Origin: Salinivirgaceae bacterium
GTDB lineage: Bacteria > Bacteroidota > Bacteroidia > Bacteroidales > SZUA-534
Direction of reading: 5' to 3'
DNA: 64,000 bases
Assembly: GCA_041664345.1 (NCBI GenBank)
Contig: JBAYKX010000023.1
Coordinates: 10,558-74,557, forward strand
This document shows positions 6,918-63,433 of the stretch, piece by piece (positions within the stretch are counted from its first letter, which is position 1; each line of letters begins with the position of its first letter). The translations under genes were made by a program, and so were the position numbers. The notes under the pieces are model-generated. The model was not told where the DNA came from. It saw nothing but the letters and a program-made list of their open reading frames with translations, and ran no database searches.

Positions 6918-7091
6918 ACCTAAGTTGAGCGATTTGACCCCGAGTCCTCGGGGGAAAAAACGCTTTACTTAGGTATAACCCCGACCTAGAAATTGTTACA
7001 ACATACCAAACAAATGGACAGCATAAAGTAAATTACTTACAATTTCTTAGTCGATTGAGTGATTTGCCCTTCCAAATCGCTCAATTTGGGT
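6918..7091 (+). mobile_element. MITE-like element, family B, copy 1
   Basis: Aligns end to end with the reverse complement of 42975-43139. Imperfect 19-bp terminal inverted repeat acctaagttgagcgatttg / caaatcgctcaatttgggt. Has internal hairpins and no ORF. Overlaps the 3' end of rsmI. Confidence 0.7.
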
Positions 7092-17333: not shown

Positions 17334-17566
17334 GGGAACTTGCAGCGCCTGCTGCGAGAGATTGGAAAACTGGGATGATTGGAAAATGGGAAAGGGTTGC
17401 CAGGTTACAAGGCTGCAGGGTAGAAAGGTAGCAGGGTTACAAGGTAACAAGGGAACAAGGTGGCCGGGTTACAGGGTTACAAGGTGGGAAATTAGGAACG
17501 TTGGAACTTGCAGCGCCTGCTGCGAGACAAGCTGCTGCGAGAGATTGGAAAATTGGAGCAATGAAC
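17334..17566 (+). repeat. Family C intergenic element: two direct hairpin cores bracketing a degenerate octamer array
   Basis: Cores lie at 17335-17373 and 17503-17556 (ggaacttgcagcgcctgctgcgagagattggaaaaytgg). Between them are 8-nt units ttacaagg ctgcaggg tagaaagg tagcaggg ttacaagg taacaagg gaacaagg tggccggg ttacaggg ttacaagg. Confidence 0.7.
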
Positions 17567-17606
17567 ATAAAAAATACCCACCCCAGTAAATTTCAAGAAC
17601 CTACCG

Positions 17607-17788
17607 CAGGGAAATCGCTTTTAAGAATTTCAATTTTAAACACGCTTTTTCGGCGCATGGTTTTTCACAATTTCAATTAAACTGTAGTGCTTGCGCCGAT
17701 TTTATACCGCAAATTCATATACCCCGAGTTGAAACTCGGGACTATTCATATTAAATCCCTCCGGGATTTCTTAAAAGCGAATTCCCTG
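17607..17788 (+). mobile_element. MITE-like element, family A, copy 1 (182 bp)
   Basis: Terminal inverted repeat cagggaaatcgcttttaagaa / ttcttaaaagcgaattccctg with 1 mismatch. Flanked by a perfect 10-bp direct repeat gaacctaccg (17597-17606 and 17789-17798). No ORF. A second copy is inverted at 50110-50293. Confidence 0.8.
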
Positions 17789-17823
17789 GAACCTACCGGG
17801 ATGGGGATTATTGAATAGGGAAC

Positions 17824-20800: not shown

Positions 20801-22194
20801 TCCCCATCAGAAACTTGTACATATAAACTGAAATTTTGATTCTCTTCATAGTTGATTAAAGAAGAATCCATAACATAAATAACACCGGTCGAGTCAACTA
20901 CTCCAAATGCACCAGATGGATTTGCCTGAACAATAGAAAAAACATGGGTATCATTATAATCTTCGTCAGAAATTAAAATGGTATCAACAATTGAATTGTT
21001 TAAAGGATTTTCATCTATCAACTCTTGCAAATTATTGGTCAAAACTCTTTCATTAACATCATTAATTTTAATGTTGTAGCCTATGAGTTTGCTTGATGAT
21101 CCATCATATATTTTAATTATTGCGTACAATGAATCGTTTCGTTCAAAGTTAAAGTAACTTGAATCAATAATCGAAATCTGCCCTGTTTCACTATCTAATT
21201 TAATTGCATTATCATCATTCCCATCAAAGACCGAAAACTCTAGAATTCCATTACCATAATAATAAGCATCAACAGTATCAAGTATCTGATTATTATTTTG
21301 ATTTTCATTTATTTGGATTTCTTGATTATAAGTATAAAGTTCAGGCCCTTGATATTCATAAGCACCTATATCAATTCTTCCATATTGAATTCTTTCATTA
21401 CCTTCAAAATCATAATTAGTTATTAAAGAATCATTTGTAAAATTTGGGTCGCCCATATTTATGCAGGGTGATGTATTTTGTAACGCATAAGGATTTGCAC
21501 CGGAACCCACAAATAAAGGATCAACATCTATATTGCCATCAGCTTGTAATTGAGCCCCCACAATATCACAATTGGTTATTTTAGGAGTTGAGTTGTATGG
21601 ATCTAAATTTGCCTGCCCATTGCCTGAAACAATGCAGTTTGATATTTCAGATAAGGAGTAATTTATTTGAATTCCAGAAACTTGATTATCCGATATGGTA
21701 TTGTTTGTTATTTTAGGTGAAGAAAAATCACAACTAATACCAATCCAATAATTTTTTACAATTAGGTTCCCTTCGATTCGTGGAGATGCTTGATAACAAT
21801 AAATTGCTTCATTATTGTTACGTGTAATTAAATTATTAGCTACAATAAGTTTATTCATATTATAAACACACAGTGCACTACCATAGCCATCAAGCCAATA
21901 ACTGCCAAAGGCATTCCCAAACTGCATAATACAGAATTCAATTTTTGAAGTATCGTTTGAGCTGGGTGTTTCTAAAAACCGAATACCACCCCAACCACCA
22001 CTGATATAAGTCAATACCGAGTCTTTGGCTGTAAAAATTATCCTATTTTGTGCCGTTCCTTGGGCTAAAATCCTTCCTTGCACATTGAGTTTGTAATGCC
22101 CCTGAAACTCTACATAAACCCCCGGGTTTATGGTTAAGGTGCGGGCATTGTTAATGGTTAAGTTGTTATAACTTTTATGGTGTCGGCACTCCAT
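17824..22194 (-). CDS. C-terminal fragment of giant T9SS-secreted adhesin (beta-helix module 4, cadherin-like repeats, Kelch-like beta-propeller, more cadherin-like repeats, T9SS C-terminal domain)
   Basis: Its first residues (NNLTINNARTLTINPGVYVEFQGHYKLNVQGRIL) continue the repeat that the upstream ORF breaks off in. Cadherin-type domain ends are present (INDVNE, IDNVNE, LIDLNEKP, VTDMNDP). Kelch-like repeats (FWKYN..WT, FYEYNPATNQW). C-terminal IYPNPVRGFLHI... sorting domain. Confidence 0.8.
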   Translation of the reverse strand: MECRHHKSYNNLTINNARTLTINPGVYVEFQGHYKLNVQGRILAQGTAQNRIIFTAKDSVLTYISGGWGGIRFLETPSSNDTSKIEFCIMQFGNAFGSYWLDGYGSALCVYNMNKLIVANNLITRNNNEAIYCYQASPRIEGNLIVKNYWIGISCDFSSPKITNNTISDNQVSGIQINYSLSEISNCIVSGNGQANLDPYNSTPKITNCDIVGAQLQADGNIDVDPLFVGSGANPYALQNTSPCINMGDPNFTNDSLITNYDFEGNERIQYGRIDIGAYEYQGPELYTYNQEIQINENQNNNQILDTVDAYYYGNGILEFSVFDGNDDNAIKLDSETGQISIIDSSYFNFERNDSLYAIIKIYDGSSSKLIGYNIKINDVNERVLTNNLQELIDENPLNNSIVDTILISDEDYNDTHVFSIVQANPSGAFGVVDSTGVIYVMDSSLINYEENQNFSLYVQVSDGEFVDTSFVNIQIDNVNELICNPYKQLEIEENLPNDSIIYQLEAFDEDNDALNYTIVSGNISNVFDLNSTTGAIQIKNTQYLSYELNKSFNLKILVSDGQLIDSVKVDIDLIDLNEKPHLSDLVLNIPENPNNSTILDTLVAADEDFNSKLTYSIIHASLDKVFGVIDSTGVVYVIDSTAINFEENKTFELLTLVSDGELSDTAAITINILNINESIEFLDTEFSVLENQQNGTIIGSVVASDLDGDVLAHAIISGNLYNTFAINASTGGISVNNNLFLDYEVNPSFNLQVVAFDGEFSDTATITINLIDVDETGINPFRGIPRSSAVSFTIDNTVYVGLGENADSVLSDFWKYNAGTDVWTKVAPFPGAARTEAVAFAVNGKGYVGLGGSKYPFTYYPDFYEYNPATNQWTTLGNFAGTARYDAVSFVINDTAYVGTGADAMDETKDFWKYDAVHDSWSEIATFTGAKRTSACAFVVEGKGYVSGGVNYSNGTSQSSDIQEYNPATNSWQQKIFADGLHLSVNDATAIGIGNKGYICYGNKKDIVSYKPSTNQVENLGDLLNLGNNRNNPISFALGDSVYFGTGYYGFMTATYTNDIQSLYLPINYPPTDIQLSFASFAENLPDLSAISTLSTIDKNSNDSFTYELVVGEGSDDNTYFTIEGNQLKAYTQNFEAKNELKIRVKTIDSEGDSFEKGFVLTVTDMNDPITEIGYIGYTIYENMPLNTVVANLQVFDEDSQGNHSFELVDGIGSDDNNAFSIDGYNLLSGAEFNYEFKSKLYYRIKAIDEGNSSMERSFEVIINNVNEAPTDILLSNDTVFVSDMLGTVVGVLNVEDEDMNDSHTFEFTSDTQTNLDDTKNYTITGHNLVVNKTITTDKQLHELLIKASDLGGLTITCFFAILVKNDLGIKLLVEASEAFNIYPNPVRGFLHIKALNPVTKVQQVKVLDATGKIVFSNESVNLTKGINLSRLTTGNYFVVIATAEKIYYKKISIE

Positions 22195-25100
22195 ACTACA
22201 TCTTCATTGGGGAGTTCAAAATATTCATTTGAATTGAGTACATAAATTTCGGTAATGAGTGTATCGGATAAAACGCCATTGCTCACTTTTATCTTCAAAT
22301 GGTAGTTAGTTTCTGCCTGGGCCTCTGTTGGAACCCATTTTATTGTATCGTTTTCAATTGACAAACCACTCGGGGCCTCAATTATGGTGTAAGTTACTCC
22401 TGAAGGAAAACTTATCGGTTTTATTGCTTCTGCATAAACGGAATCAAAACGGATGTGCTTTTTTCTGATTGTACGGAAAACTAAAAACGAATCAGGGTCG
22501 CTTTGCAGTTCGTATGCACCCATATCAATTGTAGGGTTTGTTCCCCCTTCGTAAATCCTTGGGTTACCGGCTATGTCCATGTTTATTTCCAAACTATCCG
22601 TATCCCAATCGGGTCGCCCGGAATTTAAACAAGGTGATGTTTTTTGTAACGCATAAGGATTTGAACCGGATACCACAAATAAAGGATCCACATCTATATT
22701 GCCATCAGCTTGTAAATTAGCTCCCACAATATCGCAATTGGTTATTATAGGAGTTGAGTTGTATTGTTCTAAATTTGCCTGCCAATTTCCTGAAACAATG
22801 CAGTTTGTAAGTTGCGGAGACGAGCTTTGTAAAGATATTCCACAATAACCTTGATTATCCGATATGGTATTGTTTGTTATTTTAGGTGAAGAATTATAGC
22901 AATTAATACCATTCCCATAATTTTTTACCATCAAGTTCCCTTCAATTAATGGTGATGCATTATTACAATAGATTGCAGAATTCCAACTAGATGATCTGTT
23001 TTTTGCAATTAAATTATTGGTAATTTTAATTTTGTCAAAACCATAAATACATAATGCGCCTCCATGACCATCAAGCCCATCACTGCCAAAGGCATTCCCA
23101 AACTGTATGATACAGAATTCAATTTTTGATGTATCGTTTGAGCTGGGTGTTTCTAAAAACCGAATACCACCCCAACCTCCACTAGTATCAGTTAATACCG
23201 AGTCTTTGTCTGTAAATGTTATCCTGTTTTGTACCGTTCCCCGTGCTAAAATTCTTCCTTGTACATTTAATTTATAATGCCCCTGGAATTCCACATAAAC
23301 GCCTGGGTTTATGGTTAAGGTACGGGCATTGTTAATGGTTAAGTTATTAATAACTTTTATGGTGTCGGCACTCCATACAACATCTTCATTGGGGAGTACA
23401 AAATATTCATTTGAATTGAGTACATAAATTTCGGTATTGAGTGTATCGGATAAAACGCCATTGCTCACTTTTATCTTCAAATTATAGTTTGTTTCTGCCT
23501 GGGCCAATGTTGGAACCCATTTTATGGTATCGTTTTCAATTGCCAAACCACTTGGGGCTTCAATTATGATGTAAGTTACCCCTGAAGGAAAACTTATCGG
23601 TTTTATTGCTTCTGCATAAACGGAACCAAAACGGATGTGCTTTTTCCCGATTGTACGGAAAACTAAAAACGGATCAGGGTCGCTTTGCAGTTCGTAGGCA
23701 CCCATATCAATGGTAGGGTTTGAACCAAAAGTATAAATCCTTGGGTTACCGGCTATGTCCATGTTTATTCCCAAACTATCCGTATCCCAATCGGGGCGTC
23801 CGGTATTTAAACAGGGTGATGTATTTTGTAACGCATAAGGATTTGCACCGGAACCCACAAATAAAGGATTTATATCCATATTGCCATCAGCTTGTAAATG
23901 AGCCCCCACAATATCGCAATTGGTTATTTTAGGAGTTGAATAGTATTGAGCTAAATTTCCATCCCCATTGCCTGAAACAATGCAGTTAGTAAGTTGCGGA
24001 GAGGAACTAACTAAATATATCCCATAATCTTGATTATCCGATATGGTGTTGTTTGTTATTTTAGGTGAAGAATTATCACAATAAATACTATAATAATAAT
24101 TTTTTACAATTAGGTTCCCTTCGATTCGTGGAGATGCATGATAACAAAAAATTGTGTAGTATCTGTTACGTATAAATAAACTATTAGCTACAATAAGTTT
24201 ATTCATATTAGAAACACACAATGAACTTCCAAATTGATCGAGCCAATCGTCACTGCCAAATGCATTCCCAAACTGCATAATACAGAATTCAATTTTTGAA
24301 GTATCGTTGGCACTTGGTGTAGAATAAAACCTAATTCCACCCCAACCACCACTGGTACCAGTTAATATTGAGTCTTTGGCTGTAAAAGTAATTCTGTTTT
24401 GTGCCGTTCCCCGGGCTAAAATCCTTCCTTGTACATTGAGCTTGTAATGCCCCTGAAACTCCACATAAACCCCCGGGTTTATGGTTAAAGTGCGGGCATT
24501 ATTAATGGTTAAGTTATTAATAACTTTTATAGTGTCGGCACTCCATACAACATCTTCATCGGGGAGTTCAAAATATTCATTTGAATTGAGTACATAAATT
24601 TCGGTATGGAGCGTGTCGAATAAAACGCCATTGCTCACTTTTATCTTCAAATTGTAGTTTGTTTCTGCCTGGGCCAATGTTGGAACCCATTTTATGGTAT
24701 CATTTTCAATTACCAAACCACTTGGAGCCTCAATTATGGTGTAAGTTATCCCTGAAGGAAAGCTTATCGGTTTTATTGCTTCTGCATAAACGGAACCAAA
24801 ACGGATGTGCTTTTTTCCGATTGTACGGAAAACTAAAAACGGATCGGGATTGCTTTGCCGTTCGTATGCGCCCATATCAATTGTAGGGTTTGTTCCCCCT
24901 GTGTAAATCCTTGGGTTACCGGCTATGTCCATGTTTATTCCCAAGCTATCAATATCCCAATCGGGTCGCCCGGTATTTAAACAGGGTGATGTATTTTGTA
25001 ACGCATAAAGATTTGAACCGGAACCCACAAATAAAGGATCTGCATCTATATTGCCATCAGCTTGTAAATTAGCTCCCACAATATCGCAATGGGTTATTTT

Positions 25101-25690
25101 AGGAGTTGAATTGTCTTGGTATAAATTTCCATACCCATTGCCTGAAACAATGCAGTCTGTTATTTCAGGAAAGGAACTATCAAAAATATTAATACCATAA
25201 CCTCCATTATCCGATATGGTATTGTTTATTATTTTAGGTGAAGAATTATTGCAACTAACACCAGTCCAATAATTTTTTACAATTAAGTTTCCTTCAAATA
25301 GAGGTGATGCATTATAACAATAGATCGCTTCATTATTGTTATGTGTAATTAAATTATTAGCTACAATAAGTTTATTCATATTATAAACAAACAATGCACT
25401 ACCAACTCCATCAAGCCAATCGCTGCCATAGCCATTTCCATATTGTATAATACAGAATTCAATTTTTGAAGTGTCGTTTGTATTTGGTGTATCAATAAAC
25501 CGTATGCCATGCCAACCACCACTGGTATCCGTTAAAACAGTATCCTTTGCCGTAAAAGTTATCCTATTTTGAGCCGTTCCCCGGGCTAAAATCCTTCCTT
25601 GTACATTTAGTTTGTAATGCCCTTGAAATTCCACATAAACACCCGGGTTTATGGTTAAAGTAATGCCATTATCCACAGTAATTTCTCCGG
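21340..25690 (-). repeat. Tandem ~1.17-kb intragenic repeats (about 3.6 copies)
   Basis: The anchor string atggttaa recurs at 25651, 24481, 23311 and 22130, giving spacings of 1170, 1170 and 1181 nt. Long stretches are identical between copies by eye. Confidence 0.9.
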
Positions 25691-25850
25691 TTACTTTTAC
25701 GGTGTCGGCACTCCAGGTTTCGTTGGTGGTAATGTTTCCGCTTTTTTCAATTACAGTTTGGGCTTGTAGGGTTGTGCCCAATAAAAAAATAAATGGGAGT
25801 AGTAGATTCTTCATTTGTGCTATTTTGTTTAAAAAACCTTGGATGCTCAA
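22158..25850 (-). CDS. N-terminal fragment of the same giant adhesin (signal peptide + three tandem beta-helix/Ig-like modules)
   Basis: The likely real start is the ATG at 25814 (MKNLLLPFIFLLGTTLQAQ); the track start at 25850 is a TTG. Contains three ~390-aa near-identical modules. The ORF ends in ...VVWSADTIKVITT*, where intact modules read ...VVWSADTIKVINNLTINN. Confidence 0.8.
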   Translation of the reverse strand: MSIQGFLNKIAQMKNLLLPFIFLLGTTLQAQTVIEKSGNITTNETWSADTVKVTGEITVDNGITLTINPGVYVEFQGHYKLNVQGRILARGTAQNRITFTAKDTVLTDTSGGWHGIRFIDTPNTNDTSKIEFCIIQYGNGYGSDWLDGVGSALFVYNMNKLIVANNLITHNNNEAIYCYNASPLFEGNLIVKNYWTGVSCNNSSPKIINNTISDNGGYGINIFDSSFPEITDCIVSGNGYGNLYQDNSTPKITHCDIVGANLQADGNIDADPLFVGSGSNLYALQNTSPCLNTGRPDWDIDSLGINMDIAGNPRIYTGGTNPTIDMGAYERQSNPDPFLVFRTIGKKHIRFGSVYAEAIKPISFPSGITYTIIEAPSGLVIENDTIKWVPTLAQAETNYNLKIKVSNGVLFDTLHTEIYVLNSNEYFELPDEDVVWSADTIKVINNLTINNARTLTINPGVYVEFQGHYKLNVQGRILARGTAQNRITFTAKDSILTGTSGGWGGIRFYSTPSANDTSKIEFCIMQFGNAFGSDDWLDQFGSSLCVSNMNKLIVANSLFIRNRYYTIFCYHASPRIEGNLIVKNYYYSIYCDNSSPKITNNTISDNQDYGIYLVSSSPQLTNCIVSGNGDGNLAQYYSTPKITNCDIVGAHLQADGNMDINPLFVGSGANPYALQNTSPCLNTGRPDWDTDSLGINMDIAGNPRIYTFGSNPTIDMGAYELQSDPDPFLVFRTIGKKHIRFGSVYAEAIKPISFPSGVTYIIIEAPSGLAIENDTIKWVPTLAQAETNYNLKIKVSNGVLSDTLNTEIYVLNSNEYFVLPNEDVVWSADTIKVINNLTINNARTLTINPGVYVEFQGHYKLNVQGRILARGTVQNRITFTDKDSVLTDTSGGWGGIRFLETPSSNDTSKIEFCIIQFGNAFGSDGLDGHGGALCIYGFDKIKITNNLIAKNRSSSWNSAIYCNNASPLIEGNLMVKNYGNGINCYNSSPKITNNTISDNQGYCGISLQSSSPQLTNCIVSGNWQANLEQYNSTPIITNCDIVGANLQADGNIDVDPLFVVSGSNPYALQKTSPCLNSGRPDWDTDSLEINMDIAGNPRIYEGGTNPTIDMGAYELQSDPDSFLVFRTIRKKHIRFDSVYAEAIKPISFPSGVTYTIIEAPSGLSIENDTIKWVPTEAQAETNYHLKIKVSNGVLSDTLITEIYVLNSNEYFELPNEDVVWSADTIKVITT

Positions 25851-25957: not shown

Positions 25958-26268
25958 AAAGTTGGGGATTTGGAAAGTTGGGAAGTTGGGGAAAGGGTAG
26001 CAAGGTAACAAGGTTGCAGGGTTACAAGATGGAAAATTGGGGACGTTGGAACTTGCAGCACCCGCTGCGAGACATGCCGCAGAGAGAGATTGGAAAATTG
26101 GGAAAATGGGAAGTTTCCAAGCCCAAAGGACGTTGGAAAGTCGGTAGTTATTCCTTTTTAACTTTCCATAGCCACATTGACGTTTCCATGTCCTCCGGAC
26201 GATGGAAAGTCAGTGCTGATGTGGAAAAGTCGTTGAAATTTGAAATTCTGGAAAGATGGGAAATTGGA
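25958..26268 (+). repeat. Family C intergenic element (heptamer/octamer-type units + hairpin core + extra hairpins)
   Basis: Reads aagttgg gaagttgg..., then tagcaagg taacaagg ttgcaggg ttacaaga, then the core ggaacttgcagcacccgctgcgagacatgccgcagagagagattggaaaattgg at 26048-26101. Next come the hairpins tggaaagt...actttcca and tttccat...atggaaa. Confidence 0.65.
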
Positions 26269-28998: not shown

Positions 28999-29844
28999 AT
29001 GAACTCATTTTTAGAATTATTCCATTATACTTTTATCAATCACGCCTTATTGGCTGCTGTTTTATCGAGCATTATATGTGGAATTTTGGGAACTTATATT
29101 GTGAGCAAACGCATGGTATTTATCTCCGGTGGAATCACCCATGCTTCGTTTGGTGGTATTGGAATGGCATTTTACTTTGGTTTGTCTCCTTTTATAGGAG
29201 CCACAGCGTTTGCCTTGCTTTCGGCACTGGGCATTGAATGGATATCGAAAAAAGGCAACATTCGCAACGATTCCAGCATCGGTATTCTTTGGTCGTTGGG
29301 TATGGCTATCGGGATTATTTTTGTTTACATCACACCCGGTTTTACACCCAATTTAATGAGTTACCTGTTTGGAAGTATATTAACTGTTGGAGGCTCTGAA
29401 TTATGGATAATGACAGTGCTTGCCGGGGTAATCATCTTGTTTTTCACCCTATTCTACCGACCTATACTTTTCTTTGCATTCGACGAAAGCTTTGCCCGTT
29501 CGCAAAAGGCTCCGGTGGCTTTCCTGAATTACACCCTTATATTGCTCATTGCCTTTGGAATTGTGATAAATATAAAAGTGGCCGGAATCATTTTGGTAAT
29601 GAGCATGCTTACCCTGCCCCAAAACACAGCCAACCTGTTTTCAAACAATTTTAAACACATACTAATTTACTCCATATTGATTAGTTTAGCCGGAACATTG
29701 GCTGGACTGGCAGGCTCGTTCTGGTTAGGAATTCCATCGGGAGCAGCCATCATTTTTACGCTTTCGCTCATATTTTTTATTGCCAAAATTGCCAAGCTTA
29801 TTTTTGATAGAAGGAAAAGAGAGAAAACAGAGATTAGAAGTTAG
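28999..29844 (+). CDS. znuB: Zinc/metal ABC transporter permease (ABC-3 family)
   Basis: 281 aa, multi-TM, follows znuC by 3 nt. The last codons and the TAG stop lie inside the first units of the downstream heptamer array. Confidence 0.85.
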   Translation: MNSFLELFHYTFINHALLAAVLSSIICGILGTYIVSKRMVFISGGITHASFGGIGMAFYFGLSPFIGATAFALLSALGIEWISKKGNIRNDSSIGILWSLGMAIGIIFVYITPGFTPNLMSYLFGSILTVGGSELWIMTVLAGVIILFFTLFYRPILFFAFDESFARSQKAPVAFLNYTLILLIAFGIVINIKVAGIILVMSMLTLPQNTANLFSNNFKHILIYSILISLAGTLAGLAGSFWLGIPSGAAIIFTLSLIFFIAKIAKLIFDRRKREKTEIRS

Positions 29845-30246
29845 AAGACCGAAGTTGGAAGTCAGAAGAATGAAGACGGAAGTTAGAAGTCAGAAGTTGG
29901 AAGACCGAAGCTAGAGTTTAGAAACAAGAAAACAGAGACAAGAAAACAGAGACAAGAAACCAGTACCAAAAGTTGGAAAATGTGGCAGCCCTAAAAGGGC
30001 GAAAGAACATAGCCAAGGGCAACGCCCTTGGTAAAGTAGCACAAGTAATAAGCGGTGCATCCAACTAAGTTGCAATGGAATGGAAACATAACATGCACCG
30101 CAATATAGATAGAGCAATTGGAAGTTGGAAGTTAAAGATTAGAAATTAGGAATTAGATGTTAGAAACTAGAAGCCAGATAATAGAATCTAGAAACCAGTA
30201 ACTAGCATCCAGCAACCAATAACCAGTAACCAGTAACCAGCAACCT
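29824..30246 (+). repeat. Family C composite element: 20 degenerate heptamers, ~150-nt hairpin-rich unique core, 18 degenerate heptamers
   Basis: Parsed directly. The left arm 29824-29963 reads aaaacag agattag aagttag aagaccg aagttgg aagtcag.... The right arm 30115-30240 reads caattgg aagttgg aagttaa agattag ... taaccag taaccag taaccag. Confidence 0.8.
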
Positions 30247-42974: not shown

Positions 42975-43139
42975 ACCCAAATTGAGCGGTTTGGAAGGGC
43001 AAATCACTCAATCGACTAAGAAATTGTAAGTAATTCACTTTTTACTGTTAATCTTTTTGGTGAGCTACAACAATTTCTAGGTCGGGGTTAAACCTAAGTA
43101 AAGCGCTTTTTCGCTGCGCTTAAATCGCTCAACTTAGGA
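42975..43139 (-). mobile_element. MITE-like element, family B, copy 2 (inverted relative to copy 1)
   Basis: Its reverse complement aligns with 6918-7091, and the terminal ~65 nt are almost identical. It has the same terminal inverted repeat. The internal hairpin cassette differs. Confidence 0.7.
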
Positions 43140-48570: not shown

Positions 48571-50043
48571 ATGAAAAATAAATATATAATAGTATTTGTA
48601 TTAACGGTCTTACTATTTTCTTGTACTGATAATTTTGAGGACTATAATACCGATAAAAAAAACCCTGAAGCAGTTGCAGGTGAGATGTTGTTTAGTAATG
48701 CTCAGAAAGAACTATCCGACCAATTGAGTTCAACCAGTGTGAACCAGAATGTGTTTAAGCTTTGGGCGCAATATTGGACTGAAACCCAATATACCGAAGA
48801 ATCAAACTATAACATTGTAAAAAGGACACAGCCCGATTGGAAGTTCCGTGTTTATTATCGTCAGATTTTAACCGACTTGCAAGAATCAAAAAAGCTTATT
48901 GCTCAAGCTGTGCCGCTCACTGAGGAAGAAAGGTTTGAAAATGCAAATAAGATTGAGATAATTGAGATGCTCACTGTATTTGCATACCAAAACTTAGTTG
49001 ATATTTTTGGTATGGTTCCTTATTCCGAGGCTCTGGATATCGATAATTTATATCCTGCTTATGATGATGGCCTCACTATTTATAGAGATTTAATTGTAAG
49101 GTTAGATGCTGCCATTGCTGGTATGGATGCAACGCATGGCAGTTTTAGCGCTACCGAAGATTTCTATTATCATGGAAATGTAAATGCTTGGATTAAATTT
49201 GCCAATACCCTGAAAATCAAACTTGCCATTAATTTATCGGATGTTGACCTTACTCTTGCTGGAGCTACAATTACAAGTGCCCTTGCTGGTGAAGGGGTAT
49301 TTACGTCGAGCATTGATGATGCAACAATGACTTATAAATCGGCGGTTCCAAATACAAATCCATTGTATGTTGATATAGTTTTATCGGGCCGCGATGACTT
49401 TGTTCCAGCAAATACATTGATTGATACCATGAATGCTTTGAATGATCCGCGCAGAGCCCAATATTTTACTTTGCATGATACTTCATCGGTAAATGGTGTT
49501 GAAAAATTAGCTTATGTAGGCGGTCGTTTTGGTTATACCAATTCCTATTTAAATTATTCCCACATTAATCCAAACATATACAAAGCTGAGGCTCCCGGTT
49601 TAATATTGACCTATACCGAATTGCTGTTTTATTTAGCTGAAGCCGCTGAACGTGGGTTCACTGTTCCGCTATCTGCTGAGGAATATTACAATGATGGTAT
49701 TGTTTCATCGTTCGATTTTTGGGGTGCCACCGATGTTGCTACCTATTTAGCAAACCCTGATGTAGCTTACTCAACCGCACCCGGTACGTGGAAAGAGAAA
49801 ATCTGTCTTCAATCATGGTTAGCTTTTTATACCAGAGGCGATGTAGCTTGGAATACTTACCGTAGATTAGATGGTTTAAAAATGAACATACCACGGCGGC
49901 CAAAAACTTTGGATGGATTGCCTCCAAGAAGGTTCACATTCCCCATTCAAGAACAATCATTGAATAAAGGAAAATACGACTTAGCCGCCGAAGCTGTGGG
50001 TGGCGATTTTTTGGAAACCCGAATCTTTTGGGATCTGCAATAA
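48571..50043 (+). CDS. SusD/RagB-family nutrient-binding lipoprotein
   Basis: Lipobox LLFSCTD. It lies immediately downstream of the SusC-like gene. The 490 aa length and TPR-like helical composition are typical. Confidence 0.85.
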   Translation: MKNKYIIVFVLTVLLFSCTDNFEDYNTDKKNPEAVAGEMLFSNAQKELSDQLSSTSVNQNVFKLWAQYWTETQYTEESNYNIVKRTQPDWKFRVYYRQILTDLQESKKLIAQAVPLTEEERFENANKIEIIEMLTVFAYQNLVDIFGMVPYSEALDIDNLYPAYDDGLTIYRDLIVRLDAAIAGMDATHGSFSATEDFYYHGNVNAWIKFANTLKIKLAINLSDVDLTLAGATITSALAGEGVFTSSIDDATMTYKSAVPNTNPLYVDIVLSGRDDFVPANTLIDTMNALNDPRRAQYFTLHDTSSVNGVEKLAYVGGRFGYTNSYLNYSHINPNIYKAEAPGLILTYTELLFYLAEAAERGFTVPLSAEEYYNDGIVSSFDFWGATDVATYLANPDVAYSTAPGTWKEKICLQSWLAFYTRGDVAWNTYRRLDGLKMNIPRRPKTLDGLPPRRFTFPIQEQSLNKGKYDLAAEAVGGDFLETRIFWDLQ

Positions 50044-50052
50044 ATGAAATTT

Positions 50053-50106
50053 AAAAAAAGGCTGCCTATTTAGACTATTGAGTCTTAATTAGGCAGCCTT
50101 TTTTTG
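50053..50106 (+). terminator. Rho-independent terminator after susD-like gene
   Basis: Long imperfect hairpin aggctgcctatttagac / gtcttaattaggcagcct flanked by an A-run and a T-run. Confidence 0.75.
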
Positions 50107-50109
50107 TAA

Positions 50110-50293
50110 CAAAGAAATCGCTCCTAAAAAATCCCGTTAGGGATTTAATATGAATAGCCCTGGGTTTCAACCCAGGGATCAAGTTTTCATGGTATAAAAT
50201 CGGCGCAAGCACTACCGTTTAATTGAAATTGTAAAGAAACCATGCGCTGAAAACGGGAATTAAAAATTGAAATTTTCCCAAGCGATTTCTCTG
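50110..50293 (-). mobile_element. MITE-like element, family A, copy 2 (184 bp, inverted)
   Basis: Aligns along its whole length with the reverse complement of 17607-17788. Termini caaagaaatcgct / agcgatttctctg. The hairpin stems differ from copy 1 by paired (compensatory) substitutions. Confidence 0.75.
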
Positions 50294-50351
50294 GCCTAAA
50301 AAGACTTCTTAGTCTTATTTAGGCAGCCCTTTTTGTCCGCAAAATTTTTAC

Positions 50352-52325
50352 CTATTGCTTAACAAACGTGGCTTTTGAAATACCACTATTTGTTTCAATA
50401 GATATTAAATACATGCCAGCTTCTAAATCGGTTACATCAATACTAGCTTTCTCATTATCAATGTTTTTGCTAAGCACCAATTGACCCATACTGTTATAAA
50501 TATGGGCAGTCTGAATTATTTCACCCGTTAATTCAACCTCCAATTGGTTAGATGCTGGATTTGGATAAATTGAAAAATTGACCTTTTTAGAATCTCCAAC
50601 TGAAATGTATTCCGAAAATTCCAATCTATCAATACTAAAGGTAGGAATAGCTTTAATGTTCAGTCTTATAATTTGCTGTCCTTGTGTCATATTAATAGTA
50701 ACAGTTACCGGTTGCATTGCGGTTGAACTGGTGGTTTTAGGTGCCGTTATTAATGGGGAAGAAACCGAACCAATTTTTAATTGCATTTTACCGCCGCCAG
50801 AGGTTGAGGCTAAATATGCTGTAACCGAATAAGTACCTGTTTTAGCAACATCCACGGTATATTCCAGCCATTCGCCCACTTCTACATTATAAACATAATA
50901 CATGGCGTCCGATTTTTTAATATCAACCCCATCGGTACGGTAAACACCACCTTCGTTTACAAAGTCAATATCGTGAAAGGTCAATAATTCGCCGCCGGTA
51001 TCATAGTTTTCGGCTTCTAAAACGCCGGGAATAGGAATAGGGGTTCCAGAGTAAGCAGAACGTTCCGTGCCAATCCTGAATAATTTCATTGGATACGATG
51101 GGATTGTATCCTGGGTATAAACATCCACAATACGGTAATAGCTATCTTTGAATGGCTCCGTGTTACGGTCAATGAAAGTAGTTCCCGATGTTTGTTTCAA
51201 TTCTCCAATAACGGCAAAAACGGTATTCAGCATCTTTTTTTCAACCAAAACTTTCTCAAGTAAACCGGCGCTGGCCCGGCTGGTCCACGAAACCTGAATG
51301 GCGGTGTCATCCACGGTAGTTAGTTTCACAGCGGTTATCGATGAATCGGATGCATGAATTAAAATATCTTTCATGTCGTTCCATTTGGCATTTTTCCGCT
51401 GCAATACCTGAAACCAGCCATCATCGTCCCATACGGTAAAGGCAAAACCATGTTTTAATGCTTGTTCCGTATAAGTGGCATAGTAAAACATCCGGGAATT
51501 ATAATCGCAATCCCACATGGCTCCAAATTCACCAATCAGTACTGGAATGTTGTGCGTCTGTGACCAAGTTTTAACACCAGCCATTTGATTTATCATGGCA
51601 TTTACGTCGCTCGTACTGCCCCAAATGCCGGTACTTTCTCCAGCAAAAGCCCAAGGGTCATACGAGTGGTAATTTCCTATTAAATAGGGATCATCTGTAT
51701 TTGGAATAGCGGCAGCTTTTAAATCAGCTGAGCTGCTCCATCCAGCTCCTGAATAAATAACCAGTCTGGTTGGATTTGCTTTGCGTATAATTCCCAAAAC
51801 ACGTGCATTCAATTCATCCACTTGCGCTACAGTTATTGCCCCATGTGGTTCATTTAAAATTTCGAATAGTAATTTTTCTGATTTATCCTTGAATCGATCG
51901 GCAATTTGGACCCAAAGCGAATCAAACCGGGCTTTTTGCCCGGCATAATCATCTTTTATCCAGCTGTCGTGGTGGGCATTAATAATTACAAATAAATCAC
52001 GGTCAAGACCCCAATTCACAATCTCTTCGACCCTATTTAAAAACGTAGCGTTAATAGTATAGGGCGAAGTGGACGAAAGATGATTGCCCCATGTAACAGG
52101 AACGCGTACGGTTTTAAATCCGGCTTCTTTATACATATCAGAATAATACTCCTGAGCCTTGCCTGCCCATTCACCTTCATTGGGTGCATCCAACGTATTA
52201 CCCATATTTATGCCACGCTCCATGGCCACAATTGCTTGTTGCGCTGTTATTTGTGCTTGTATGCTTATGGTACAAACAAGCATTGCCATTAAAATGGTAC
52301 TTCTTTTTGTTGTAGTATTTTTCAT
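50352..52325 (-). CDS. GH5 endoglucanase/glycanase with CBM6-like module and T9SS C-terminal domain
   Basis: GH5 acid/base LLFEILNEPH and nucleophile region LIGEFGA. A CBM6-like segment (LEAENYDTGG...YRTDGVDI). C-terminal FSIYPNPASNQLEVEL sorting domain. Confidence 0.85.
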   Translation of the reverse strand: MKNTTTKRSTILMAMLVCTISIQAQITAQQAIVAMERGINMGNTLDAPNEGEWAGKAQEYYSDMYKEAGFKTVRVPVTWGNHLSSTSPYTINATFLNRVEEIVNWGLDRDLFVIINAHHDSWIKDDYAGQKARFDSLWVQIADRFKDKSEKLLFEILNEPHGAITVAQVDELNARVLGIIRKANPTRLVIYSGAGWSSSADLKAAAIPNTDDPYLIGNYHSYDPWAFAGESTGIWGSTSDVNAMINQMAGVKTWSQTHNIPVLIGEFGAMWDCDYNSRMFYYATYTEQALKHGFAFTVWDDDGWFQVLQRKNAKWNDMKDILIHASDSSITAVKLTTVDDTAIQVSWTSRASAGLLEKVLVEKKMLNTVFAVIGELKQTSGTTFIDRNTEPFKDSYYRIVDVYTQDTIPSYPMKLFRIGTERSAYSGTPIPIPGVLEAENYDTGGELLTFHDIDFVNEGGVYRTDGVDIKKSDAMYYVYNVEVGEWLEYTVDVAKTGTYSVTAYLASTSGGGKMQLKIGSVSSPLITAPKTTSSTAMQPVTVTINMTQGQQIIRLNIKAIPTFSIDRLEFSEYISVGDSKKVNFSIYPNPASNQLEVELTGEIIQTAHIYNSMGQLVLSKNIDNEKASIDVTDLEAGMYLISIETNSGISKATFVKQ

Positions 52326-62469: not shown

Positions 62470-62635
62470 CAGTTCTTCTTCTGTCTCCTGGTTGCTGGTT
62501 GCTCGTTACTGGTTGCAGGGTTTCAAGGTTTCAGGGTTGAAGGGTTAAATGGTTACAAGGTTAAATTGTTACTATCCAGCTTCTAATCTCTAATCTCTAA
62601 CTTCTAACTTCCAACTTCCGACTTCTAGCTTCCAT
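62470..62635 (-). repeat. Family C composite element (heptamers - octamers - heptamers), reverse orientation
   Basis: The minus strand reads aagctag aagtcgg aagttgg aagttag aagttag agattag agattag aagctgg. Next come the octamers taacaatt taaccttg taaccatt taaccctt caaccctg aaaccttg aaaccctg, then caaccag taacgag caaccag caaccag. Confidence 0.75.
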
Positions 62636-62638
62636 TTT

Positions 62639-63433
62639 CTAAGGCTTAACTTTCTTTAGGTACGTGCTTTCAAATTCAACCATTCTTTTCTCAACTTCAA
62701 CAAAAATTTCGTAAGTAGTTGCATCTAATAAATAATTGTTACTAAATGCAAGATAGTTATACAAAGAATCGAGCTTAGTGCCCGAAAAACCTGAAAATTT
62801 ACCCAGTTCTACCTTATTATATTTTTCATCAATCAATAGTTCTATTTCATCTTCCAGAAGCAGTTCACCCAGTTTCCGTAGGCTTTTCCCTTTATCGCTA
62901 AACATAAAGTACAATGCGGAAATGGGTCCATCAAAAGTCTTTTTGGGATTAAACTTTTCTTCTTCGCGCATAAATTGGTATTCACTTCGGGTAACTCCGG
63001 GAATTATCAGTTGTTGCCCCCAGGCATTTCTATCCGGTTTTAAATGAATAAAATCGTACCTGAATTGATTTTCGCGGGTTAAAGCAAAAATATCTACCAC
63101 ATTGAGTTGGTATGAGGTGGGCGAAAGTGAAATTTCCAAAAAACAAATGGTTGATTTCAACGAATCAGGCAGGGTCATTACTTTGTCTTCAAAACCGATG
63201 CAGCGAAAGAGCAACGTGTCTGTTTTTAATAATTTTATCCTGAAAATTCCTAAAGAATCGGATATGGTTCCGGTGCCGGTACGCAAATTTATAATATGCA
63301 CAAAAGGAGTTTTTTCCGATGAATCGGACGAATGAATAATACCGGCTAACCGGTATTGCATCGTTTCAACCTGAGCTATTGCTGTGGTTGCAGTAAGTAC
63401 AATAAAATAAATTATAAGTAACTGTTTATTCAT
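62639..63433 (-). CDS. CarboxypepD_reg-like domain protein (hypothetical, secreted)
   Basis: Signal peptide. The N-terminal segment LAGIIHSSDSSEKTPFVHIINLRTGTGTISDSLGIFRIK resembles the carboxypeptidase-regulatory-like fold. The rest is unassigned. Confidence 0.5.
   Translation of the reverse strand: MNKQLLIIYFIVLTATTAIAQVETMQYRLAGIIHSSDSSEKTPFVHIINLRTGTGTISDSLGIFRIKLLKTDTLLFRCIGFEDKVMTLPDSLKSTICFLEISLSPTSYQLNVVDIFALTRENQFRYDFIHLKPDRNAWGQQLIIPGVTRSEYQFMREEEKFNPKKTFDGPISALYFMFSDKGKSLRKLGELLLEDEIELLIDEKYNKVELGKFSGFSGTKLDSLYNYLAFSNNYLLDATTYEIFVEVEKRMVEFESTYLKKVKP

Follow-up and report, generated by a model that had tools for sequence, protein, structure and literature searches.

A Bacteroidota MITE family with a covarying three-hairpin interior related to Acido-Lenti-1-type loci

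The element at 50110-50293 of the window, the whole 64,000-nt stretch of DNA analysed here, is one copy of a MITE whose interior contains three hairpins, H1, H2 and H3, with stems that have changed by compensated substitutions and with relatives that stand alone, outside any transposon ends. The reading that we favour, with a probability of roughly 0.65, is that of a MITE mobilised in trans that carries an Acido-Lenti-1-like three-hairpin cargo, the fold of which would be kept in proliferating lineages and would decay neutrally after insertion. MITEs are usually viewed as inert deletion derivatives with freely drifting interiors; the interior of this family is instead a conserved fold, compensated in the proliferating lineages and common to non-transposon loci. 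Through this relationship Acido-Lenti-1, a function-unknown but abundant Rfam family, is tied to the mobile DNA of Bacteroidota, and the motif gains a third hairpin located upstream. The MITE family also makes available some 45 natural variants in one genome, with intact, half-changed and compensated stems, for testing transposition, transcription and protein binding.

Anatomy, copies and mobility of the element

The window contains only two copies of the MITE. Copy 1 occupies 17607-17788 on the plus strand (182 nt; 203 bits with covariance model R1) and copy 2, the element under review, 50110-50293 on the minus strand (184 nt; 185 bits over its full length). The initial annotation described copy 2 as matching the reverse complement of copy 1 from one end to the other, and this is borne out by an identity of 82% over 183 nt (blastn E = 2e-38). 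The terminal inverted repeats (TIRs) of copy 1, at 17607-17625 and 17770-17788, match each other at 95%. Those of copy 2 are CAGAGAAATCGCTTGGGAA on the left (50275-50293, minus strand; columns 1-20 of alignment A2), which is paired with 50110-50128 in the predicted fold, and TTAGGAGCGATTTCTTTG on the right (50110-50128, minus strand; columns 204-223 of A2). Between these ends lie H1, at 17650-17699 in copy 1 and 50200-50250 in copy 2, where the arms TCAGCGCA and TGCGCCGA enclose a 35-nt loop; the central hairpin H2, at 17722-17741 and 50158-50177, which in copy 2 reads CCCTGGGT tgaa ACCCAGGG; and H3, at 17753-17769 and 50129-50146, which in copy 2 reads AAATCCC taac GGGATTT and is followed by TTT. 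All three are on the plus strand in copy 1 and on the minus strand in copy 2. In folding comparisons with shuffled sequences both copies gave z-scores of -5.4 to -7.5 on either strand, with z = -5.4 for copy 2.

The sequences previously quoted for the central hairpin were confirmed as ccccgagttgaaactcggga at 17722-17741 in copy 1 and as ccctgggtttcaacccaggg on the plus strand at 50158-50177 in copy 2, the reverse complement of which is ccctgggttgaaacccaggg. Comparison of the H2 arms of copy 1 (CCCCGAGU/ACUCGGGA) with those of copy 2 (CCCUGGGU/ACCCAGGG) recovers the two stem-preserving paired substitutions that had been claimed, from C-G to U-A at pair 4 and from A-U to G-C at pair 6. The outermost H2 pair is a C.A mismatch in copy 1 and is free of mismatch in copy 2, and in H1 of copy 2 an A at the second G of the 5' arm forms an A.C mismatch. 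The aaatccc/gggattt stem of H3 is, as had been stated, kept in both copies around differing loops (tcc in copy 1; gtta on the plus strand of copy 2). The H2 variants of copy 2 are not private to it; the arm pair CCCTGGG/CCCAGG is also present in the copy at locus L038, and these variants therefore mark a subfamily.

Each window copy contains the motif AATTTCAATT at two places, next to the inner edge of the left TIR and in the loop of H1 (17626-17641 and 17668-17682 in copy 1; 50267-50276 and 50222-50231 in copy 2), with a local-alignment p of ~0.007-0.025 against shuffles. It was dropped as a conserved direct repeat, being significant only in subfamily-A copies and absent from subfamily B.

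The reported position of copy 2 between convergent genes is correct, with the SusD-like gene of a SusC/SusD pair on one side (48571-50043, plus strand) and a GH5-CBM6 gene with a T9SS sorting tail on the other (50352-52325, minus strand). Copy 1 is flanked by identical 10-nt target-site duplications, GAACCTACCG, at 17597-17606 and 17789-17798, read directly from the sequence. Copy 2 is atypical in having no such duplication, and in its place stands a duplicated flanking hairpin, with a left copy of ~46 nt that includes a T-run and also resembles the susD terminator (50064-50109) and a right copy at 50294-50341. The two are direct copies with ~80% identity over 41 aligned nucleotides of hairpin, and their mid-stems read TTT/AAT in one and AAAA/ATTT in the other, a compensated difference. 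Upstream of copy 1, one member of a 113-nt direct repeat (17451-17563 and 25996-26108; 82% identity), composed of purine-rich short repeats and a small hairpin, stops 34 nt ahead of the target duplication.

Further copies were retrieved by a pattern scan of public genome and metagenome contigs with an 18-mer from the best-conserved block. The 18-mer belongs to the 3' H1 arm, which is consequently invariant by ascertainment in most copies. The genome contigs yielded four true copies from two Bacteroidota MAGs, three of them at contig ends, and the metagenome contigs yielded 56 loci, of which ~30 have copies, nearly all from a single sample, Ga0172379. In total 33 copies were recovered and ~31 were assigned to the organism of the window, ~29 of these from the Ga0172379 groundwater sample. 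Of the words sampled from the window, run X1 contains 100%, and of those from locus L078 (Ga0172379) it contains 96%, at equal depth over unique flanks (246-278 for the window and ~250 for L078), and the L078 contig is therefore from the organism of the window; the other ~29 Ga0172379 copies are probably from it too. In the same run the element reaches a depth of ~11,000 against ~250 in its flanks, and the ~44-fold excess over the conserved block corresponds to roughly 45 copies in the genome. Three contigs of a MAG labelled Rikenella microfusus, SulCav_GS10 (L015, L016 and L004), start or end within a copy of the element; the repeat thus breaks short-read assemblies, and copy numbers taken from MAGs are underestimates.

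The copies are 182-205 nt long, well within the limit of ~500 bp that marks bacterial MITEs, and contain no ORF. Full-length copies have a near-universal start, CAGGG(A/C)AA(T/C)CGC(T/A)TTTAAG, with the inverted sequence at the other end, and a consensus inverted end of 19-21 nt, CAGGGAAATCGCTTTTAAG. Direct repeats of 10 nt flank copy 1 and most of the 26 full-length copies, examples around other copies being TCAAAAAAAT, CTTTCCGATT, AGAGTTTCCA, AGAAGATATA and ATGATTGTAA. With its inverted ends, target duplications and dispersed copies, the element is a genuine MITE. Every one of the 33 copies falls between genes. With respect to the gene upstream they show no preferred orientation, 17 being codirectional and 12 opposed, and their gene contexts are convergent (9), divergent (5) and tandem (11).

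Comparison with known insertion sequences points to the ISAs1 family, whose members have inverted ends of ~15-20 bp starting with CAGGG and target duplications of 8-10 bp. One of them, ISArsp11, has 19-bp inverted ends, CAGGGCTGATGCAAAGTCG, that start with CAGGG, and a 10-bp duplication (PMC6305408, Table 3). The MITE shares the CAGGG start, an end length of 19-21 bp and the 10-bp target duplication, and differs from the family in having no transposase gene. It resembles MITE derivatives of ISAs1 elements in being small, non-coding, present in tens of copies and always placed between genes; unlike theirs, its interior holds a conserved module of three hairpins in place of random IS remnants, and this module also exists without IS ends. 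These likenesses suggest that the element is moved by an ISAs1-type parent IS. A search for such a parent through additional TIR matches in the window and the fetched loci returned only a solo end in L038 and weak matches beside ordinary genes. The window and the fetched loci contain no transposase gene, and there is no ISAs1 transposase beside the homologues that lack TIRs. Runs X1 and X2 contain no joints of an empty-site allele of copy 1, and blastn of the element against plasmids and phages gave no match.

The loop of H2 is a hotspot for insertions, and the outer H2 stem is kept in all of the copies that bear one. A 22-nt insertion, TGCTTCGACAGGCTCAGCAACC, is present in eight copies (L052:6182-6386, L015:8-213, L082, L049, L084, L060, L048 and L038), and its occurrence on different TIR and H3 backgrounds indicates recombination between copies. 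A new perfect palindrome, TCCCGATA..TATCGGGA, occupies the H2 loop of L079:58-254 and L080:5097-5291.

Covariation of the hairpins and the place of constraint

Alignment A2 comprises 25 full-length copies aligned with MAFFT in a structure-blind manner, and RNAalifold run on it recovers the TIR stem, H1 and H2. The four helices jointly have 91.8% of cells paired, compared with 87.7 ± 0.4% in shuffled alignments, and none of 500 shuffles was as high; 12 pairs are changed on both sides, and sliding the partners by 1-3 columns reduces pairing to 32-52%. H2 alone is 97.5% paired (89.9% when shuffled; again 0 of 500 as high), with 14 doubly changed cells against 0-1 with slid partners. The initial annotation had read the paired changes between copies 1 and 2 as selection on structure, a reading that independent variation of the stem positions in further copies would speak against. 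With 33 copies collected the opposite is observed: the stem positions covary, the 25-copy alignment exceeding both the 500 shuffles and the slid partners, and the H2 haplotypes are all complementary, which supports the earlier reading.

The varying pairs of H2 occur as GC in 17 copies and AU in 6, as CG in 17 and GC in 7, and as CG in 24 and UA in 1. Pairs 6 and 7 together form four haplotypes, GC/GC, AG/CU, AC/GU and GG/CC, each of them complementary, and the change from C-G to U-A at pair 4, found in copy 2 and L038, is complementary as well; H2 has therefore undergone at least four compensated double substitutions. In L081 one H2 pair stands at the G.U intermediate. Four versions of H3 occur, AAATCCC/GGGATTT, ATATCCC/GGGATAT, AATCCT/AGGATT and, as a replaced form, CCCGCC/GGCGGG, and each of them makes a hairpin. 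H1 has one compensated variant, CGGTGCA/TGCACCG in L074b, and is weakly tested, since the search 18-mer lay in its 3' arm and makes that arm uninformative.

The copies fall into subfamilies, and unpaired columns associate with one another as strongly as stem columns do. A G-test with APC correction alone was set aside, as it fails to separate stems from subfamily linkage, and a complementarity criterion was used because of this linkage: pairing of 90% or more, and two pair types in which both partners are different. By this Watson-Crick criterion 7 of 3240 pairs of variable columns covary, and four of the seven are predicted stem pairs. The subfamily linkage also means that independent events are few, ~4 in H2, two in H3 and one in H1. 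The TIR 'stem' covaries too, and this is uninformative on folding, because two binding sites of a single transposase are expected to change in step. Columns 30 and 68 were considered as a long-range pair and rejected as a subfamily marker, their neighbouring columns being unpaired.

Two uncompensated A.C variants are each common to two copies. Uncompensated stem variants in H1 and H2 are mostly A.C on the plus strand (~10 cells, against 1-2 of G.U, or G.T), which on the opposite strand are wobble pairs. This strand asymmetry of mismatches, suggestive as a count of cells, was discarded, since it does not reach significance once independent events are counted and singleton G>A and C>T changes are equally many (3 vs 3).

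Private substitutions are as dense in stems (15 in 35 columns; 0.43 per column) as in unpaired positions (35 in 77; 0.45), and most of those in stems disrupt a pair. The variants that define subfamilies in H2 and H3, by contrast, are all compensated. Taken together, these two observations place the constraint on the fold in the lineages that produce copies and not in each insertion, and inserted copies probably decay neutrally. The equal private densities and the unbiased orientation argue against a host function at individual loci and for a role in propagation or persistence.

Homologues without inverted ends

Covariance model R1 was built only from MITE copies and was used to search 379 kb, in which its only matches outside the MITE copies are two loci. 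The first, at 29987-30123 of the window on the minus strand (24.6 bits), is a homologue of the three-hairpin core that has no TIRs and keeps H1, H2 and H3 in the same order and at nearly the same spacing. It is placed between znuB and an lpdA-like gene, on the strand opposite to both. Its 3' 45 nt (29987-30031, minus strand) match the Rfam family Acido-Lenti-1, RF01687, with 41.6 bits against a gathering score of 37, and this is the only Rfam match at the gathering score in the window. The second locus, L065 (46 bits), likewise has no inverted ends and combines an H1 of the MITE type with an Acido-Lenti-1 H2-H3 at 597-641 (RF01687, 45.3 bits). No further match to RF01687 was found in ~245 kb of additional loci from the same genome and its relatives (~310 kb searched in all). 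As the two loci are the only places recognised by both R1 and RF01687, the overlap is unlikely to be due to chance. In H1 and H2 of the window homologue 6 of 16 pairs differ from the MITE consensus; all six differences are compensated and no pair is broken. The stems of both TIR-less loci are intact throughout.

Long degenerate arrays of heptamer-like repeats (cttccaa, ctggtta, cttctaa) surround the Acido-Lenti-1-type core in the window, at 29824-29986 and 30124-30246. Similar low-complexity arrays lie at 17350-17560, beside MITE copy 1, and at 62570-62640.

The MITE itself matches no Rfam family at the gathering score. Its copies fall below the RF01687 threshold, with a maximum of 23.9 bits for the weak match of H2 of copy 2, and the RF01687 search gave no match for L050, L078, L086, L074, L076, L052 and L015. 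We therefore refer to the MITE copies as relatives of the Acido-Lenti-1 family and not as members. The architecture is nonetheless alike, since H2 of the MITE (8 bp, ending in GG) is followed by CUAUUCAUAUUAAA and then by H3, giving two hairpins with a GGCUA-containing linker, while in Acido-Lenti-1 a GGCUA-U-rich linker joins a GC-rich hairpin of 8 bp to one of 5 bp, as in H2-H3. Differences from Acido-Lenti-1 are that the unit described here is longer, with the conserved hairpin H1 upstream, and that the MITE unit is bounded by transposon ends and duplicated ~45 times. At the level of sequence and model comparison, the MITE core is shown to be homologous to stand-alone loci of the Acido-Lenti-1 type without inverted ends; the link between the MITE and Acido-Lenti-1 itself is, by the same comparisons, a transitive one that passes through these TIR-less homologues. 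Published work treats Acido-Lenti-1 as a probable RNA whose function is unknown (Weinberg et al., 2010, PMC2864571; bioRxiv 10.64898/2026.10.21.760802).

Explanations for the conserved fold

In the mechanism that we propose, a DDE transposase would recognise the inverted ends (CAGGGAAATCGCTTTTAAG), move the non-autonomous element in trans and generate the 10-bp duplications. The interior module, predicted to consist of H1 (8-bp stem, 35-nt loop), H2 (8-bp GC-rich stem) and H3 (5-7 bp, followed by a T-run), would fold as a single-stranded nucleic acid, either a transcript or single-stranded DNA, and this fold would be needed for a copy to spawn others or to persist as a source. The compensated changes would then be products of structure-preserving evolution, and copies would decay neutrally once inserted. 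As the ends are all that a DDE transposase requires, the hairpins in between are probably a functional cargo or cofactor, not a classical transposase substrate.

A more far-reaching version, which we advance tentatively and regard as possible but clearly on the short side of even odds, takes the three-hairpin unit to be a self-standing single-stranded module that serves as cargo of different mobile elements, with fold-intact copies founding new ones. An ISAs1-type MITE would have taken up the unit, and the fold would promote its spread or retention, for example by recruiting a protein partner. If this were true, Acido-Lenti-1, an orphan 'small RNA' listed since 2010, would be an accessory module of mobile elements and not a conventional sRNA gene, and the MITE family would amount to a natural mutagenesis series for its role.

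Compensated changes need not reflect selection at all. Replication template switching (quasi-palindrome correction) copies one arm of a hairpin from the other, and could produce each compensated change in a single step; it has a documented capacity to create and maintain hairpins and to give apparent compensatory substitutions (PMC8794818). The nested palindromes in the H2 loop of L079 and L080 and the 22-nt insertion in eight copies suggest hairpin-prone mutation, and the inserted copies appear to be free of purifying selection, as this account would have it. Private mismatches have, however, stayed uncorrected (~8 A.C cells in H1, and in H2 those of win_c1, L038 and L081), so that correction is not pervasive. 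Arm-to-arm copying also leaves unexplained the conserved unpaired linker GGCUAU and the order and spacing of the three hairpins in the diverged TIR-less homologues, and the 35-nt loop of H1 makes it a poor substrate, yet H1 of the window homologue has two compensated pairs. We consider an origin without selection unlikely. Selection by the host at each locus, with the copies acting as terminators or insulators between convergent genes or as 3'-UTR or small-RNA elements under selection as RNA, seems to us quite unlikely. It would account for the placement of both window copies between convergent genes, for the T-run that follows H3 in nearly all copies and for the terminator-like form-B H3 (CCCGCC-GYG-GGCGGG and five T; -11 to -14 kcal/mol), and it accords with the listing of Acido-Lenti-1 as a likely RNA by Rfam and by Weinberg et al., 2010 (PMC2864571). 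Against it stand the unbiased orientation and mixed gene contexts of the copies, the equal frequency of private mutations in stems and loops, the terminator-like hairpins that already flank copy 2, and the H3 of the TIR-less homologues, which has no T-run. A Rho-independent terminator has a GC-rich stem of 5 bp or more with a T-run directly behind it; a terminator scan flagged H3 in neither of the two window copies, and with the orientation being unbiased a terminator role was dropped as unlikely.

The idea that we rate as least probable, and as very improbable, is that the hairpin module is a REP-like site in single-stranded DNA for a Y1 transposase (HUH, IS200/RAYT-like) that reads hairpin shape, the ISAs1-type ends being a secondary vehicle. 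REP/BIME repeats with their RAYTs are hairpin repeats whose stems are maintained over many copies; REPs measure 20-40 nt, lack both inverted ends and target duplications and rely on a Y1 transposase. Structure-specific recognition of this kind would explain both the compensated stems and invariant unpaired bases such as GGCUA, and the excess of A.C on the plus strand would fit a function of one strand, although that excess is not significant as independent events. The MITE copies, unlike REPs, show clean inverted ends as well as 10-nt duplications, and neither is a product of Y1 transposition. In a motif scan neither the window nor ~700 kb of fetched loci yielded a Y1-like ORF, and Pfam scans of the ORFs beside both TIR-less homologues gave no Y1 transposase.

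Among other structured repeats, the Correia elements of Neisseria, enterobacterial ERIC and pneumococcal RUP/BOX are short, lie between genes and have inverted ends. As single strands or transcripts they fold into long stem-loops, and co-transcription of their copies with adjacent genes is common; Correia elements duplicate TA. The MITE is likewise a short intergenic repeat with inverted ends. It differs from these elements in the ends themselves and in the target duplications, as well as in having three discrete internal hairpins, compensated substitutions and a homologue outside a transposon.

The window also holds repeats of other kinds. A second, unrelated repeat family is represented by an inverted pair of 138 nt at 6954-7091 and 42975-43112, 89% complementary, and four tandem DNA repeats of 1.17 kb, 62-94% identical, lie at 21441-25719 inside beta-helix/cadherin genes with T9SS tails.
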